From the sequence record MZ576218: a stretch of 44,540 bases of DNA; one strand, written 5' to 3'. The position numbers were made by a program, and so were the translations under genes. Below, in pieces: positions 2,782 to 37,924 of the stretch. Position 1 is the stretch's first letter, and every line of letters begins with the position of its first letter. This stretch comes from Escherichia phage vB_EcoS-phiEc4. Below the pieces are notes generated by a model that was given only the letters and a program-made list of their open reading frames with translations, did no database searches and was not told the DNA's origin.

Positions 2782-3858
2782 ATGCTATTAACTTTAGCGC
2801 CACAGGGTTTATCTATGAGCTTACTTACATCCCTAATCAGCCATCAGATATGGCTGCAACGCACCGCATCCGGTGAGGTGAAAGACCTCACGCCGTTCAT
2901 TCAGGAGATAAGGGATGAAATCAAACGGCAGGTGCTGTTATTCGGTGACGACGGTCGCAGCACTGCGCGACTGAATAAACTGTTACGCGACCTGGAAGAA
3001 GCACTAACCGGTATTACGGGTGACTGGCAAACAAAGCTAACAGACGACCTTAAGGAACTGGCGGCGTACGAGGCTGAGTGGAACGTAAAGACACTGACCG
3101 CCAACGTAGACGCGGAATTTGTTACGCCTACCGCTGAGCAGGTATGGGCCGCTGCCGAGTTTCAACCATTATCATTGAGCGACAAGCCCGTTGATTTCAC
3201 CAAGCTGATGTCTGGATGGGGCGAAACGGAAGTAGCACGTCTTGTAACTGGAGTTAAGATGGGCTTTGTGCAAGGTCAAACCACACGGCAGATTGTTAAG
3301 AATGTTGTTGGCGCTGGTGGACTAGCCGACATCTCAGAACGTAACGCGGCTACGGTAATCCGCACCGCGCTGTCCCACGTATCCAACGAGGCCCGTAACG
3401 AGACGTACCGCCAGAACGACAACATCATCGAGAAGTACGAGTGGGTGTCAACGCTTGACAGCCGCACCAGTACGATTTGCAGGGTCAGAGACGGGATGAC
3501 GTGGGAAATTGGTAAGGGGCCGATGCCCCCAGCCCATCCGAACTGCCGGTCGTGCACGGCTCCGGTAATCAGTTCCGAGTTCGACTTCCTCGATAAAGGC
3601 GCAAAACGCGCGGCTAAAGGCGCGGAAGGTGGCACTCAGGTAAGCGCAGACACCACTTACTACGAGTTCCTTAAACAACAACCGGCGTGGTTTCAGGACC
3701 AGGCGCTCGGCCCGGTGCGAGGTAAGATTTTCCGTAACAGCGGTATATCGCCGGAAGAGTTTCGCGTAATATCTGTAGATGGTTTCGGGAATCCGCTCAC
3801 GCTTAAGCAGATGGCGGAACTCGATAAACGTGTTGCTGATTATCTGAAAGGGGAATAA
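2782..3858 (+). CDS. head morphogenesis protein (Mu F / SPP1 gp7-like minor head protein)
   Basis: 358 aa following portal; C-terminal Cys/His-rich region typical of the F-like family. Confidence 0.6.
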   Translation: MLLTLAPQGLSMSLLTSLISHQIWLQRTASGEVKDLTPFIQEIRDEIKRQVLLFGDDGRSTARLNKLLRDLEEALTGITGDWQTKLTDDLKELAAYEAEWNVKTLTANVDAEFVTPTAEQVWAAAEFQPLSLSDKPVDFTKLMSGWGETEVARLVTGVKMGFVQGQTTRQIVKNVVGAGGLADISERNAATVIRTALSHVSNEARNETYRQNDNIIEKYEWVSTLDSRTSTICRVRDGMTWEIGKGPMPPAHPNCRSCTAPVISSEFDFLDKGAKRAAKGAEGGTQVSADTTYYEFLKQQPAWFQDQALGPVRGKIFRNSGISPEEFRVISVDGFGNPLTLKQMAELDKRVADYLKGE

Positions 3859-4319
3859 TGATGGGCTTTTTCAAAGTAACTGACGTACCGTCTCGTCGCG
3901 TAGTCCAGTACGCCCGCGTGTCTGGCTCTGGCGAGAACGTGGTATTTATTGGGGGCGAAAGTGTACTCGGTACACCGGTAGATGATATGCCGTTTGCAGA
4001 TAAAACCGGTATTGCGTTGCCCGCCGCCGGTATGCTTTATGAAATTCCGTATCTGGCGGACGCTGGCGACGTGTATTTCTCTGCGCAACCCGCCGATACA
4101 GAACTGACAGACGGCAGCGCAGCTATCACTGTCGAAGTTAAGGCAGGTAAAGCGCCATATGCTCTGACCTGGTACAAAGACGGTAAGGAAGTGGTCAACG
4201 CCCCTGAAGAGGCTCTGTCTCTGACGGTTAATGCGGTCGGCGAATATTTCGTTAAAGTTACTGATGCCGATGGTGTAGAGGCGGTGAGTAAAGCGGCGAA
4301 GGTTACTAAGCCAGAATGA
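3858..4319 (+). CDS. Ig-like domain protein (possible capsid-associated)
   Basis: 153 aa; C-terminal segment ALTWYKDGKEV...GEYFVKVTDADG resembles an Ig-like fold; RBS AAAGGGG upstream. Confidence 0.45.
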   Translation: MMGFFKVTDVPSRRVVQYARVSGSGENVVFIGGESVLGTPVDDMPFADKTGIALPAAGMLYEIPYLADAGDVYFSAQPADTELTDGSAAITVEVKAGKAPYALTWYKDGKEVVNAPEEALSLTVNAVGEYFVKVTDADGVEAVSKAAKVTKPE

Positions 4320-4340
4320 TAAAAAGCCGGAATGATAAAA

Positions 4341-4368
4341 AGCCCCGCTATGGGGCTTTATTTTTATA
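4341..4368. terminator. bidirectional rho-independent terminator
   Basis: AGCCCC-GCTAT-GGGGCT hairpin flanked by A-run upstream and TTTATTTTTAT downstream; sits between convergent genes 3858..4319(+) and 4432..4776(-). Confidence 0.7.
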
Positions 4369-4431
4369 TGAACATCGCGGTGATAGCCGCAGCCGATACC
4401 CTCAAAACAAAATAAAACATCACACTATTTG

Positions 4432-4776
4432 TCATTTGCATTTCTCGTCGTATGTTTGTTGTAACTGCGACAGACGATTACCGGCTGTCATCTCGTCCAT
4501 AGAAGGCCCGGCGCCCGTGTCCATAAAGAACAGCGGAACAATCAGGAATGCGCCTGTAACACCGAGTACAACGTTAGTACCTATTTGCTTATTAACACGG
4601 TGCGTAGCGTTGGCTTGAGCTTGTTTTGTCGCGGCGATTCTCGATAGTAACTGATTACATGTTGCCGTTGTATCCCCCGCCTGATAAACCTGTAAAGCTG
4701 GGTCTGGCAACGACCTTACGCAACCACTCAAACAAACGGCTACAACACCTGCTACTGCTAATTTAATATATTTCAT
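4432..4776 (-). CDS. lipoprotein with C-terminal hydrophobic segment (superinfection-exclusion candidate)
   Basis: 114 aa; signal peptide with lipobox LSGC (MKYIKLAVAGVVAVCLSGC); own promoter upstream; antisense to structural genes. Confidence 0.6.
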   Translation of the reverse strand: MKYIKLAVAGVVAVCLSGCVRSLPDPALQVYQAGDTTATCNQLLSRIAATKQAQANATHRVNKQIGTNVVLGVTGAFLIVPLFFMDTGAGPSMDEMTAGNRLSQLQQTYDEKCK

Positions 4777-4874
4777 AGTTCACCATTACCTGTATCAATG
4801 TCACCGATACCACTACAAGCCCAAATAAACATCGCCACATCAACTGCAATTACTACTGAAATAACGACTAACAT
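4773..4874 (-). CDS. 33-aa hydrophobic micro-protein (MLVVISVVIAVDVAMFIWACSGIGDIDTGNGEL)
   Basis: not in ORF track (<60 aa); strong RBS GAGGAGG 5 nt upstream of ATG; stop overlaps start of lipoprotein gene (ATGA coupling). Confidence 0.35.
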   Translation of the reverse strand: MLVVISVVIAVDVAMFIWACSGIGDIDTGNGEL

Positions 4875-4901
4875 GACGGCCTCCTCGGTTCGATAGAATG
4901 A

Positions 4902-4930
4902 ATAGTACCCTATTATATTGGGGTGTGCAA
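4902..4930 (-). promoter_or_regulatory. sigma70-like promoter P_A copy 1 (TTGCAC-17-TACTAT) with AATAG-N4-CTATT palindrome
   Basis: reverse complement reads TTGCACACCCCAATATAATAGGGTACTAT; 29-bp block recurs at 14137..14165, 37896..37924, 39119..39147. Confidence 0.6.
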
Positions 4931-4982
4931 ACTATTTATTTACGTATTCCAGTTATTCCACCGAATTGTAAATGTTGGAATA

Positions 4983-4998
4983 AACTATTCGAATAGTT
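4983..4998. repeat. 16-bp perfect palindrome AACTATTCGAATAGTT overlapping -35 of P_C1
   Basis: self-complementary as read; half-sites CTATT/AATAG are those of the promoter palindrome family but in opposite arrangement. Confidence 0.5.
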
Positions 4999-5025
4999 GA
5001 CTTTTCACTAAAAATATGATAAGCT
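4997..5025 (+). promoter_or_regulatory. promoter P_C copy 1 (TTGACT-17-TGaTAAGCT, extended -10)
   Basis: same -35, 17-bp spacing and TGn-TAAGCT as 37587..37615. Confidence 0.55.
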
Positions 5026-5031
5026 CCACCT

Positions 5032-5234
5032 GAGCTTGTGAAGTATGAACAAGCGACCGCGGCGCGGGCAGGTAACGGAGCGGGACGTAAGTCCTGAGTG
5101 TAGTTACGCTGACGCGTTCGGAAGGGCCATACTCTATTGCTTGTGTAAAAAGTAACAGGTTTACTTAGATTACGCCGTTTCTATGTTTAAATGATAAGGA
5201 CTAGCGCCCTGCTTTAAGGCAGGGCTTTACTTAT
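5032..5234 (+). ncRNA. promoter-proximal structured RNA element, copy 1 (candidate antitermination leader or sRNA)
   Basis: ~105-nt core homologous to 37621..37725 with compensatory changes in two helices; ends at terminator-like hairpin 5206..5234. Confidence 0.5.
5206..5234 (+). terminator. hairpin GCCCTGC-TTTAAG-GCAGGGC followed by TTTACTTAT
   Basis: 7-bp GC-rich stem and U-rich tail, 15 nt upstream of Rz start. Confidence 0.5.
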
Positions 5235-5249
5235 CGAGAAAGGGGAAAC

Positions 5250-5636
5250 ATGAATCTTAAAGCAACCGTCGTAGCAGGAGCATGTTTCATCATCCTGGCT
5301 TACACACACGGCATTTATCAGTACCGCAGCGGCTGGCACGAAGGCCGCGCTAATCTCGTTTCGCAGCAACAGCAGAAAGCACAGGCCGAGTTAGCGAAGA
5401 AAACACAACGGCAGCAGCAGGATGAATCAAAGGCCGCCGCCGCTGACAACGAAGGCAAGACGAAATCAGAGGTGATCACCCGTGAAGTCGTTAAGTACAT
5501 TAAAACTCCTGGTCGCAGCGTGTGCACTTTCGACCCTGAGCGCGTGCAGCTCAAGTCCCGCGCCGTCGCAAACGCCAATTCCATCCCCGGATACGACGAT
5601 GATGCAGCCGCCGTGCAAGCTGGCACCGCCGAGTAG
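5250..5636 (+). CDS. i-spanin (Rz-like)
   Basis: 128 aa; N-terminal TM segment, Gln/Lys-rich charged periplasmic region; contains +1-frame lipoprotein ORF. Confidence 0.6.
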   Translation: MNLKATVVAGACFIILAYTHGIYQYRSGWHEGRANLVSQQQQKAQAELAKKTQRQQQDESKAAAADNEGKTKSEVITREVVKYIKTPGRSVCTFDPERVQLKSRAVANANSIPGYDDDAAAVQAGTAE

Positions 5637-5745
5637 CGACGCTGACGAGGATTTAGCTATCGACGTTCAGAACGCTGAATGCGTACGGCAGCTGCGGCTG
5701 AAAGTGTTCATGTTGCAGGATTACGTGAGGAATATTCTGGAATAG
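5482..5745 (+). CDS. o-spanin (Rz1-like lipoprotein), overlapped architecture
   Basis: 87 aa in +1 frame relative to Rz; signal peptide with lipobox LSAC; Pro-rich mature region. Confidence 0.6.
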   Translation: MKSLSTLKLLVAACALSTLSACSSSPAPSQTPIPSPDTTMMQPPCKLAPPSSDADEDLAIDVQNAECVRQLRLKVFMLQDYVRNILE

Positions 5746-11671: not shown

Positions 11672-11697
11672 AGGCCCCTTTCGGGGCCTTTTTCTTA
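11672..11697. terminator. bidirectional rho-independent terminator
   Basis: AGGCCCC-TTTC-GGGGCCT followed by TTTTTCTT; between convergent major tail gene (+) and kinase gene (-). Confidence 0.75.
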
Positions 11698-12249
11698 CAA
11701 ACCTAATTTTAAAGCAATGTCTATAACGTTCGATTTAACGTCACCCGGTATGATGTAGGTGTCGTAATCTTTTACACCACTAACATCATACAGATAGCCA
11801 CGGCTATCGCCGATGAACGTATAGCCGTCACGATGGAGGCGAACGATTTGCACGTCATGCCCTGCGGCGACGATAGGGGCAACTTCACTGGCGAATCCAC
11901 CGTCGGACACTACAAAAACTTCGTCGCCGTCAGGCAAGTTTTCAGCAAGATACTTACCGAAATAATCATCGCCGAATACCGGTTTAATGAATTGCTCAGA
12001 AATGGCAATCATTAACTGGCGGCGGGACAACCCATTAAGAAAACCCTCGGGTTTTTCTTTCCGCGCCCGGTCGTCGTAGCCGTCGAGAAATTCGTGGTAA
12101 GCATCCTGGCCTAACGCTGCCAAAGCAATATTGAACATTGGATTCTTGAAACTGGTAGTTCCTTTCGCAAAGCCCATTTCTACCAGCGCCATAGCAAGCG
12201 TGTCTTTCCCGCAACCCGCAGGGCCATTAAGAATAATTACCTTAGCCAT
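11695..12249 (-). CDS. P-loop kinase, deoxynucleoside monophosphate kinase-like
   Basis: 184 aa; Walker A GPAGCGKDT; LSRRQLMIAISEQ segment resembles T4 gp1 dNMP kinase; start overlaps upstream stop (TAATG). Confidence 0.55.
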   Translation of the reverse strand: MAKVIILNGPAGCGKDTLAMALVEMGFAKGTTSFKNPMFNIALAALGQDAYHEFLDGYDDRARKEKPEGFLNGLSRRQLMIAISEQFIKPVFGDDYFGKYLAENLPDGDEVFVVSDGGFASEVAPIVAAGHDVQIVRLHRDGYTFIGDSRGYLYDVSGVKDYDTYIIPGDVKSNVIDIALKLGL

Positions 12250-12737
12250 TATTTATCGCTCCCGTGTGGTTTTAAGTGTGTAGAGTTCCCGTTACAGTCG
12301 TATTCGGTAACTGCGTGTGCGGTTATGCCGAGGTCACGGAAATGCTTTATTACCGCTGGAGAGTCGTCGAACGCACACAAGATTCTTTCCAGTCCGAAAG
12401 CACGCAACACCTCTTCTTTAATTACGATGTCTTTTCTGTTGTCGTGTTTGCTGCGCATGATTAGCGTGTCAAACCTAACGTTATTCTCTCGTAACCATTC
12501 GCGAGTCTCCTCCTCAGCGTCATCACTTCGCCCGGTAAGGATAATTATAGTAAGTCCGGAATGCCACAGTACGCTACACAAATGGATATTGTCGTATATC
12601 GGAGCGTCATCTTTGCAGGCCATGTTAAATGGCTTCCACGCCCACGTTTCTCCGTAGTTATCTTTTGGTAACAGGTGTAAGCGATGGGTACCGTCGGCCA
12701 ATGTCCCGTCTAAATCGAAAATTACAATATCTTTCAT
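12249..12737 (-). CDS. HAD-family phosphatase, T4 polynucleotide kinase 3'-phosphatase domain-like
   Basis: 162 aa; HAD motif I FDLDGTL, motif II LTGR, DNRKD..KEE and AFDDS segments closely parallel the T4 Pnk phosphatase domain. Confidence 0.7.
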   Translation of the reverse strand: MKDIVIFDLDGTLADGTHRLHLLPKDNYGETWAWKPFNMACKDDAPIYDNIHLCSVLWHSGLTIIILTGRSDDAEEETREWLRENNVRFDTLIMRSKHDNRKDIVIKEEVLRAFGLERILCAFDDSPAVIKHFRDLGITAHAVTEYDCNGNSTHLKPHGSDK

Positions 12738-13864
12738 CCCAGCATCTCCGGTGAAATAGTTAAACGTGCGACCTCGCCATATTCGGCGCTATAAGTAATT
12801 ACATTTGCACTGCGGCCCGACATCCATCCGCCGCGAGAGGCGTAGGCGTCTTTAGCCGCTAAGGTGCGGTGTTGCTCAACAATCATGTTACGGCTTTCTA
12901 CAATCTTCTGGTGGTGCAGATGGCCTACGTGGGCGTAGCTGTAAACACTCTCGCCGAACGCTTTACGGAACTTGGCAATCATAACCGGTTCGATAGCGTC
13001 GAATCGTGCTTTATGCCCGTGATGGAAGAACAGCGTCGTTTTGCCGTGTTGCACCATCTTGTAAACATCCGGCGACGTATCGACGAATACACGAGGCTCG
13101 TTGTCGTACAGTGTGCTGAACATCTCCGCCAGCCAAATCATCCCGGATTCGTCGTGGTTCCCCTGAACTATAAGCAAGCGAACAGTTTTATGCTTAACCA
13201 GAGCCATATCAACAACACGGCGGACCATGCGAATCATGTAGCGGACAAGTTTCTGGTAACGCGTGTCGGCGTCAAGGACATGACCACTCGCCGGTGTAAC
13301 GGCGTCAAGACTATCGAAGTGAGCTAAGTCGCCAAGAAGATTAATAACCCCCGTACCTGCATCCGGTGCTTTCTGAAACGCAGCATCAAACCAACGAGAG
13401 AATAAGTCCTCCGCGATTTTCATATCCCAGTCGTCGCCGCTCTCGTCAGCCCAGGCTAACATACCGAGATGGAAATCAGATACCGTGTAAAGATTGAGTA
13501 GTTTATCGTCACGTTTGGCTCGTGCCGGTTTAACAGGCGCAACGGGCGTAATCTCTGACTTCATGCCCTCTATTACGGCTTTCATCAATTCAACCTGACG
13601 TTCGGCATCAGCGTCGGTCTTAACCCATTGCAACTTAGTGTTGCCGAACTCGTCCACCAGGGACGACGTTCCTTTAATCTTGTAACCGTCTGGTACAAGG
13701 TGACTAACGTCGCGCCCGTGGCCTACGCCTTTCTTAGCCAGCTTCGCTTTACGGATTCGGATAACGCGGTCTGAGATTCCGTATTTACGGGCGATATCGA
13801 TATTCTTCATCCCGGCGTTCAATTCTTCCTGTAATTGCTCGTCGGTTATTTTCTTCTGGGCCAT
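12734..13864 (-). CDS. HTH domain fused to calcineurin-like metallophosphoesterase (SbcD/Mre11-like motifs)
   Basis: track ORF 12734..13969; likely start ATG 13864 with RBS GAGGAAG; motifs SDFHLG, GDLAHFD, GNHDE, HHGH, GHLHH; N-terminal basic HTH-like segment. Confidence 0.65.
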   Translation of the reverse strand: MAQKKITDEQLQEELNAGMKNIDIARKYGISDRVIRIRKAKLAKKGVGHGRDVSHLVPDGYKIKGTSSLVDEFGNTKLQWVKTDADAERQVELMKAVIEGMKSEITPVAPVKPARAKRDDKLLNLYTVSDFHLGMLAWADESGDDWDMKIAEDLFSRWFDAAFQKAPDAGTGVINLLGDLAHFDSLDAVTPASGHVLDADTRYQKLVRYMIRMVRRVVDMALVKHKTVRLLIVQGNHDESGMIWLAEMFSTLYDNEPRVFVDTSPDVYKMVQHGKTTLFFHHGHKARFDAIEPVMIAKFRKAFGESVYSYAHVGHLHHQKIVESRNMIVEQHRTLAAKDAYASRGGWMSGRSANVITYSAEYGEVARLTISPEMLG

Positions 13865-13902
13865 GCTTACTTCCTCGTGTTTAGGATTTGTCTTATAGTA
13901 GC

Positions 13903-14094
13903 CTACTTCTCTTTCACGTTCGAGTTGCAAGCCCAGATTAAAATGAATACCCACGGCAACAGAATCCACCCGAGAAATAAGTTAGCCATGAATATCGCCA
14001 GCTTTGCTTTATGGTTACGCATATGTGCCACCAAAAACGGGATAAAATAAACGGCTACAAAAATAATTAAGAAGAACATAGTGATACCGGTCAT
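13903..14094 (-). CDS. superinfection immunity (Imm-like) small membrane protein
   Basis: track ORF 13903..14121; likely start ATG 14094 with RBS AGGAG; pattern IPFLVAHMRNH...NLFLGWILLPW...LIWA resembles the small superinfection-immunity family as recalled. Confidence 0.6.
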   Translation of the reverse strand: MTGITMFFLIIFVAVYFIPFLVAHMRNHKAKLAIFMANLFLGWILLPWVFILIWACNSNVKEK

Positions 14095-14136
14095 AACATA
14101 ACTCCTGATTTGAGATAACATCGTTGGTGTAAGTGA

Positions 14137-14165
14137 ATAGTACGCTATTATATTGGGGGGTGCAA
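14137..14165 (-). promoter_or_regulatory. promoter P_A copy 2 (TTGCAC-17-TACTAT) with AATAG-TACG-CTATT palindrome
   Basis: near-identical to 4902..4930; drives the minus-strand Imm/phosphoesterase/phosphatase/kinase operon. Confidence 0.6.
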
Positions 14166-37895: not shown

Positions 37896-37924
37896 TTGCA
37901 CACCCCAACATAATAGGATACTAT
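37896..37924 (+). promoter_or_regulatory. promoter P_A copy 3 (TTGCAC-17-TACTAT) with AATAG-GATA-CTATT palindrome
   Basis: TTGCACACCCCAACATAATAGGATACTAT; followed by leader GAGACAGAGGAG and gene 37959. Confidence 0.6.

Follow-up and report, generated by a model that had tools for sequence, protein, structure and literature searches.

In the genome of Escherichia phage vB_EcoS-phiEc4 (sequence record MZ576218; 44,540 nt, analysed at its full length and called the window here) we have characterized an antisense cassette of three short genes, which encode a 33-residue membrane micro-protein, a 114-residue lipoprotein precursor and a 25-residue hydrophobic micro-protein. The cassette is an optional, horizontally exchanged accessory (moron-like) transcription unit in a variable slot, and its lipoprotein belongs to a large protein family. 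Homologues of the lipoprotein hold exclusion-gene positions in other mobile elements, and this strengthens the reading that the cassette is an early-expressed, envelope-level module that excludes incoming DNA. We assign that reading a probability of about 45%.

A modular cassette on the minus strand

The slot is laid out as promoter, 33-residue gene, lipoprotein gene with 25-residue gene, and terminator, and the units between promoter and terminator (the 33-residue gene on the one hand, the lipoprotein and 25-residue genes on the other) are gained and lost independently. The slot of phage K1H holds the promoter, a strong Shine-Dalgarno (SD) sequence, a diverged 33-residue open reading frame (ORF; MMVAISFVLLVNLGLFVWAVSGVEDADSGNGEL) and the terminator, with nothing more. 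The lipoprotein and the 25-residue ORF are missing together from it, and its junction (ATGAAAAATAAGGCCCC) fits the first lipoprotein codons joined to the end of the 25-residue ORF. The metagenomic contig L022 has the same promoter followed by the lipoprotein and the 25-residue ORF, with a short leader instead of the 33-residue ORF. Because K1H carries the 33-residue gene alone and L022 the lipoprotein without it, we conclude that the two are separate modules.

An earlier reading of this DNA, which we call the original prediction, had treated the lipoprotein and the 33-residue protein as a coupled pair under a promoter and terminator of their own. The elements of that description are all present: two minus-strand ORFs, an ATGA overlap formed by the stop of the 33-residue ORF and the start of the 114-residue ORF, and a strong SD sequence. 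The view of a self-contained antisense accessory unit also stands. The pairing itself does not, since each of the two genes occurs without the other, and the lipoprotein's constant co-inherited partner is the 25-residue ORF, which had been overlooked. All ten phage records with the lipoprotein contain this ORF, and so does L022. The second ATG of the ORF, at 4435, forms an ATGA overlap with the lipoprotein stop, and its end lies 5 nt short of the terminator stem. In-frame comparison with the L022 copy gives proportions of synonymous (pS) and nonsynonymous (pN) differences of 0.89 and 0.16. Codon 14 (4400..4402), halfway along the hydrophobic helix, reads Arg (AGG) in the window and in Escherichia phage vB_Eco_K-02 (K-02); residue 14 is Trp (TGG) in the 8 other phage records and in L022.

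That the 33-residue ORF is a real gene, as had been proposed, is borne out by its conservation. It is intact in every one of the ten phage records carrying it (pS 0.158, pN 0.044). The K1H copy has the same length and shares 18 of 33 residues with that of the window, with pS 0.62 versus pN 0.28 in frame, whereas out of frame pS and pN are about equal. The protein consists of a single hydrophobic helix and a conserved acidic tail, contains no Lys or Arg, and has no match in PHROG, Pfam or PADLOC. Its Cys20 was considered as a second lipobox and rejected, because the protein lacks a basic n-region and K1H does not conserve the Cys. At least these two micro-genes, of 25 and 33 residues, have been missed or mis-stranded in the deposited annotations of these phages. 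The annotation of K-02, for example, shows several plus-strand 'hypothetical proteins' here (window 4316..4618 (+) and other short plus-strand ORFs; L002 2517..3197) and omits the minus-strand lipoprotein. As substitution patterns favour the minus-strand frames, these plus-strand ORFs look like wrong-strand calls.

The window is a Kagunavirus genome of the Guernseyvirinae, and its cassette region is 99.8% identical to that of K-02 and 96-97% identical to those of several other Kagunaviruses. Among 181 related phage records, 10 have the lipoprotein cassette. Kagunaviruses of the Bas70-76 type carry an acidic 67-residue ORF in its place; the one in Bas75 (L003 2773..2976, minus strand) is cytoplasmic-looking, unrelated to the cassette and a member of phrog_27256, to which no function is assigned. 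Since these phages carry an unrelated ORF there, the slot is a general cargo site. The G+C content of the cassette is 44%, compared with 51% for the window and 52-56% for the neighbours of the cassette. It is the combination of sparse occurrence, other cargo in Bas75, independent gain and loss of modules and low G+C content that identifies the cassette as accessory and exchanged.

What had been described as an early-type promoter (P_A1) proved to be a repeated and conserved motif. The whole 29-mer has three copies in the window, against none expected by chance, precedes genes in 77 Guernseyvirinae records, and is found ahead of the cassette slot in K1H, L022 and fBC-Eco01, whose record annotates it as a PHIRE 'phage promoter'. 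It agrees with the sigma-70 consensus at 7 of 12 positions and is absent from the output of a generic promoter scan. Conservation covers the full 29 nt, including the spacer (CCCCAAYATAATAG), as well as TTCAYT after it. This spacer-wide conservation points to something beyond a plain sigma-70 site, and the motif may also be a regulator-binding site. We call the cassette early-type because the motif also heads a presumed early block and an operon with an Imm-family gene, so that early timing is suggested by motif sharing. A literature search for Guernseyvirinae transcription data found nothing relevant. The bidirectional terminator of the original prediction likewise exists as a stem-loop on both strands, although not at 4341..4368 as first placed (Table 1). 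Its stem (AAAGCCCC/GGGGCUUU) is seen in the predicted fold, and the fBC-Eco01 annotation has a terminator on both strands.

The lipoprotein, its family and the positions of its relatives

The 114-residue product reads as a credible lipoprotein with predicted lipidation. Its signal peptide and LSGC lipobox are present as originally described, the N terminus (MKYIKLAVAGVVAVCLSGC) having the basic n-region, hydrophobic core and lipobox (consensus [LVI][ASTVI][GAS]C; split MKYIK-LAVAGVVAVC-LSGC) of a substrate of the Sec pathway and signal peptidase II. The protein matches phrog_13472, a group with no assigned function, over residues 3-114 (E=2.5e-44), and is 82% identical to its L022 homologue, with pS 0.59 and pN 0.12 indicating purifying selection. 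A profile search over 1.8 billion cluster representatives returned 1,467 relatives, of which 714 were found at E<=1e-10 and 69 at E<=1e-30. Family members are mostly 110-160 residues long, and the mature window protein has 95 residues. Searches of the lipoprotein and its family against Pfam, NCBIfam, PADLOC and PDB sequences gave nothing informative, and Pfam scans of ten longer members showed no informative fused domain. Elsewhere in the family there are occasional C-terminal SHOCT domains; otherwise Pfam does not cover it. Foldseek comparison of the lipoprotein with viral models (BFVD) found nothing at E<=0.001, and fold searches with the lipoprotein model returned only generic hairpins.

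A lipobox is present in 132 of 168 family sequences, several of the remainder being truncated at the N terminus, and Cys19 is kept in 120 of 121 aligned members. The residue at +2 is Val in the window protein and A, G or V in the family, with Asp in 1 of 132. According to the enterobacterial Lol sorting rule, Asp at +2 means retention in the inner membrane. Thus, with Val and not Asp at this position, the lipoprotein is predicted to be targeted to the outer membrane. Positions conserved in at least 90% of the 121 members are Cys19, Asp35, Cys40, Asn68, Gly75, Pro81, Asp86, Glu/Asp94, Arg101, Leu105 and Cys113, and the window protein has the entire family signature: the lipobox Cys, YQxGD, Cys40...Cys113, N-(17-18 hydrophobic)-D and Arg101. 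Cys40 and Cys113 occur together in 115 of the 121 sequences, are both missing from 3, and one of them is lost in 3 (Fisher p=1.4e-4).

The hydrophobic stretch previously assigned to the C terminus of the lipoprotein does exist, as a second Kyte-Doolittle peak at residues ~69-85, but it is internal. Across the 121 sequences its length is fixed at 17-18 residues, and N68, G75, P81 and D86 are nearly invariant. AlphaFold (AF2) predicts a helical hairpin (helix 1, residues 40-78; helix 2, residues 90-112) at a predicted local distance difference test score (pLDDT) of 87.5 and a predicted template-modelling score (pTM) of 0.71. The deep 121-sequence alignment was used for this model in place of one of 21 sequences, with which the pLDDT was only 59. 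The model places the hydrophobic stretch at the tip of the hairpin, between helix 1 and helix 2, and both cysteines at the open end. Taken together, the conserved positions, the Cys pair and the model favour a periplasmic disulfide-stapled hairpin whose tip would dip into one membrane leaflet. A membrane-spanning helix is disfavoured because spanning would put the two cysteines apart.

The clusters most similar to the phage lipoprotein are found in several kinds of mobile element. In P22-like prophages (P0007, from Citrobacter, and P0004) the gene comes directly after ejection gene 16 and ahead of mnt/arc/ant/tailspike, and these prophage copies have promoter-like and terminator-like signals of their own. 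P22 itself has sieA at the corresponding interval. According to a study of SieA, the gene always lies between genes 16 and 9, is carried by only 22 of 66 P22-like phages, and is escaped by mutations that map to gp16 and gp20 (PMC10883804). P0007 is also present on a small plasmid contig, and complete E. coli genomes contain no copy of the Citrobacter prophage gene. On small mobilizable plasmids, P0006 follows MobC-relaxase-ProQ. P0009, from Seleniivibrio, follows TraH-TraG_N of an F-type transfer system (a type IV secretion system, T4SS) and precedes helicase/methylase or OLD-type defence genes. In conjugative elements, an exclusion gene is typically the direct neighbour of the gene that it targets, which is often a VirB6/TraG homologue (PMC11493245).

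Other relatives adjoin an integrase in an AlpA-type island (P0011) or are flanked by a helicase/WYL pair on one side and a type I restriction-modification (R-M) system on the other (P0008). In lytic Aeromonas Autographiviridae the homologue is located in the early region, upstream of the primase; in Aeromonas phage CF7 it is directly followed by a 66-residue membrane protein with two transmembrane segments, an arrangement not shared by phiAS7 or LAh5. Members from Deferribacteres (L008 5523..10405, L010 663..5317 and L017 1..12408) adjoin apparent defence cargo, including an SNF2 helicase with DUF4391 and a methylase, a helicase with an OLD-type TOPRIM ATPase, and a DUF4011 helicase with WYL and a type I R-M system that includes a PIN_12 gene.

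Possible functions of the cassette

The exclusion reading can be put as a sequence of steps. The phage promoter would drive three short, translationally linked genes, for the 33-residue protein, the 114-residue lipoprotein and the 25-residue protein. The lipoprotein would be exported and lipidated at Cys19; a Cys40-Cys113 disulfide would staple the base of its hairpin, and the 17-residue hydrophobic tip would dip into a membrane leaflet, with the 25-residue protein as a membrane partner. The lipoprotein would not mask a receptor. It would hamper the channel that brings the DNA of a second phage, or elsewhere of a conjugation system, across the envelope, and in the window phage it would complement an inner-membrane protein of the Imm family.

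That protein is encoded in a second antisense operon (11695..14165, minus strand), which lies inside the structural gene region behind the 29-nt motif. The first gene of the operon (13903..14121) encodes a 72-residue superinfection immunity protein of the T4 Imm family (PF14373, E=1.8e-13). It is followed by genes for a 411-residue metallophosphoesterase-like protein, a PNKP-type HAD phosphatase (PF25109, E=3e-20) and a P-loop kinase-like protein, and these last three products could be an RNA-repair or anti-defence set. The motif shared by the cassette and the Imm-family gene suggests a two-layer exclusion arrangement, similar to the T4 pairing of Imm with Sp in that an inner-membrane protein would be matched by a periplasmic or outer one that is expressed along with it. 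T4 Sp is unrelated to the window lipoprotein, and we infer the pairing from the common motif.

The likeness to P22 SieA is one of position and of proposed action. The homologues P0007 and P0004, not the window gene, fill the same interval of P22-like prophages, as optional cargo with its own signals, and the proposed block would fall on DNA delivery and not on adsorption. SieA differs in being a 164-residue inner-membrane protein, not a lipoprotein, and in being encoded on the strand opposite to gene 16, and its hhalign probability against the lipoprotein family alignment is 0.3%. The window phage, unlike P22, is a lytic siphovirus whose cassette lies away from tail and ejection genes. A 149-residue neighbour of the Citrobacter prophage gene likewise has no homology to SieA. 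Conjugative exclusion lipoproteins (F TraT, RP4 TrbK, pKM101 Eex and IncC Sfx) are encoded beside DNA-transfer machinery, as P0009 and P0006 are; none of the 121 family members matched Pfam TraT, MbeD/MobD or TrbK at E<=0.01. IncC Sfx was rejected as a relative, since it is a 286-residue lipoprotein, vcrx085 (PMC11493245).

The function originally proposed was receptor masking in the style of T5 Llp or T1/phi80 Cor. On such a model the lipoprotein would bind and inactivate the outer-membrane protein receptor of the window phage and so stop superinfection and the loss of progeny on debris. Llp and Cor are, like the window protein, small phage lipoproteins with conserved cysteines and non-late expression that are presumed to act at the envelope against superinfection, and a small lipoprotein of outer-membrane type with a conserved Cys pair and a non-late promoter in a lytic phage would suit such a role. 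The analogy does not extend to homology. The Cor group phrog_1119 matches only residues 1-36, the signal peptide, at E=0.31, and Pfam, PHROG, PDB-sequence and BFVD searches linked the lipoprotein neither to Llp or Cor nor to any other known exclusion family. The window family is further set apart by its long helical hairpin with a hydrophobic tip and by its spread through non-phage elements. Llp and Cor act on FhuA, and T5 llp lies beside the receptor-binding gene; the cassette, by contrast, is not beside receptor-binding or tail-fibre genes, the long ORFs of the tail region being at ~15-24 kb. Kagunaviruses are reported to depend for entry on surface glycans (O-antigen or capsule), which they engage through tailspikes, and have no known protein receptor (PMC11990801). 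As relatives occur in P22-like phages, T4SS and mobilizable plasmids, which use unrelated entry routes, one protein receptor could not explain the spread of the family. We therefore regard masking as improbable. Superinfection exclusion or envelope modification, the broader class that had been suggested, is still the most plausible one given the positions of homologues, though not by way of receptor blocking.

A second possibility, which we consider unlikely, is that the lipoprotein is an envelope stabilizer or lysis-timing factor resembling SlyB/YfgH, with the hairpin reinforcing the outer membrane against premature lysis, lysis from without or envelope stress. Outer-membrane lipoproteins with membrane-stabilizing transmembrane glycine zippers are documented (bioRxiv 10.64898/2025.12.22.696046), and SlyB/YfgH resemble the window protein as modelled in combining an N-terminal lipid anchor with a short hydrophobic hairpin that can lie in a leaflet, which sets a precedent for Lol handling. 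Versions of the protein from Aeromonas phages have Gly-rich tips (such as NVGAGALGLFTLGLGWMAID), the cassette adjoins the spanin genes, and the majority of distant members of the family are single chromosomal genes in housekeeping surroundings, in accord with a general envelope role. Yet SlyB/YfgH show no detectable homology to the window protein, which is without their beta-rich periplasmic domain and has long, amphipathic, Cys-stapled arms; the Pfam glycine-zipper families match none of the 121 members; the closest relatives cluster at mobile-element or defence positions and not in stress regulons; and most Kagunaviruses dispense with the cassette. It also seems to us a poor prospect that the protein serves host conversion, as an orphan immunity against an envelope toxin or as a Bor/TraT-like serum-resistance factor that is incidental in a lytic phage. 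Cargo positions in prophages, plasmids, an integrative and conjugative element and an integrase island would accord with such a benefit, as would prophage copies with an independent promoter and terminator. However, purifying selection keeps the gene in strictly lytic lineages and in the early regions of Aeromonas podophages, settings in which a benefit to the host would have little time to pay off; the neighbourhoods examined contained no toxin partner, and the Bor and TraT families show no similarity to the lipoprotein. An extra lysis component, spanin-like or antiholin-like, is very improbable even though the cassette adjoins Rz/Rz1 and all three of its products are membrane-directed. It lies on the opposite strand under a promoter different from that of the spanins, and a complete Rz/Rz1 pair is already there. 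The lipoprotein has no PHROG lysis match and, compared with an Rz1-type outer-membrane spanin, is not embedded in Rz. The 171 of 181 related records that are missing the cassette belong to phages that still lyse their hosts, and homologues are found in prophage immI regions and on plasmids.

Several points weigh against the exclusion reading itself. The functional argument for the lipoprotein family is one of position, and the window cassette is not adjacent to any tail or ejection gene. Its promoter is a weak sigma-70 match, with a timing read from the motif. The 17-residue stretch could, judged by its sequence, be a stop-transfer helix that leaves the C terminus in the cytoplasm, and the mid-helix Arg14 of the window's 25-residue protein may be a damaging polymorphism that impairs it. 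In addition, 55 more distant loci from diverse phyla, found with a narrow family alignment and scanned for 202 neighbour ORFs with a simple ORF caller, revealed no recurrent neighbour (no neighbour family at >3 loci) and mostly housekeeping surroundings; P0014 adjoins the nuo operon, and P0020 is chromosomal with no evident mobile-element genes. As distant members sit among housekeeping genes, the family may ancestrally have served a general purpose in the envelope, and mobile elements may have borrowed the lipoprotein from it.

A wider form of the exclusion reading would make the family a general envelope DNA-entry exclusion device of lytic and temperate phages, conjugative elements and mobilizable plasmids. 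In each, the tip of the stapled hairpin would obstruct a translocation channel (ejection proteins, tape measure or VirB6/TraG), aided in phages by a one-helix micro-protein. This generalization we hold to be doubtful.

Genomic surroundings and implications

The cassette is flanked by the Hoc-like gene and the Rz genes (Table 1), and scaffold and major capsid genes come after the Rz/Rz1 pair, in keeping with the placement originally given between head genes and a spanin/scaffold block.

Table 1. Positions of the cassette features, the copies of the promoter-like motif and the flanking genes in the window
Feature	Position	Strand	Basis or remark
Promoter-like motif TTGCAC(-35)-17 nt-TACTAT(-10)	4902..4930	-	Putative function; predicted transcript start near 4895
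Shine-Dalgarno sequence GAGGAGG	4880..4886	-	5 nt before ATG of 33-residue ORF; direct sequence reading
33-residue membrane micro-protein MLVVISVVIAVDVAMFIWACSGIGDIDTGNGEL	4773..4874	-	ORF list
114-residue lipoprotein precursor	4432..4776	-	PHROG 13472
Signal peptide with lipobox L-S-G-C (Cys19)	4720..4776; lipobox codons 4720..4731	-	Sequence reading
Hydrophobic segment N68-VVLGVTGAFLIVPLFFM-D86	4519..4575	-	Tip of predicted hairpin; candidate re-entrant membrane insertion
25-residue hydrophobic micro-protein MQMTNSVMFYFVLRVSAAAITAMFI	4364..4441	-	ORF list; overlooked in the original prediction
Bidirectional intrinsic terminator	4339..4359	both	Stem-loop with T-runs on both strands; common to cassette and Hoc-like gene
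Second copy of promoter-like motif	14137..14165	-	Ahead of T4 Imm-family gene and phosphatase/kinase operon
Third copy of promoter-like motif	37896..37924	+	Heads block of small acidic ORFs typical of early genes (presumed early)
Mu-F/SPP1-gp7-type head morphogenesis gene	2782..3858		
Hoc-like head decoration gene	3858..4319		Convergent with cassette
Rz/Rz1 spanin pair	5250..5636 and 5482..5745	+	phrog_2536, phrog_5672

The interval from the cassette promoter to Rz (4931..5249) is non-coding and 94-99% conserved in ~180 phage records, including those with a different cassette. Within it are a conserved 36-residue ORF (5045..5155, plus strand) and a GC-rich hairpin (5206..5225) just 25 nt ahead of the Rz start. 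An Rfam search of 4200..5400 gave no match. The window lipoprotein has a single 'plasmid' match, 99% identical to it, in CP088689.1 (PLSDB, 44,086 bp), a 'non-mobilizable E. coli plasmid' from a blood isolate. Its length is that of a Kagunavirus genome, and in all probability a phage genome, due to a carrier state or to contamination, was filed here as a plasmid.

Exclusion genes decide phage co-infection and plasmid entry, and only a handful of families of such genes are known. Accessory phage lipoproteins that exclude rivals have been described before, and the window lipoprotein represents another family, without a name, that stands out by its architecture and by its striking spread across elements. 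A mature protein of 95 residues, for which Pfam has no model, recurs at characteristic exclusion positions in three classes of mobile element. Should the exclusion function prove wrong, the genes described here would be an accessory membrane cassette of an ordinary sort. Kagunaviruses are in use against uropathogenic and K1 E. coli. If the exclusion reading is true, the lipoprotein would be a simple, easily assayed exclusion factor, with relevance to the design of phage cocktails.

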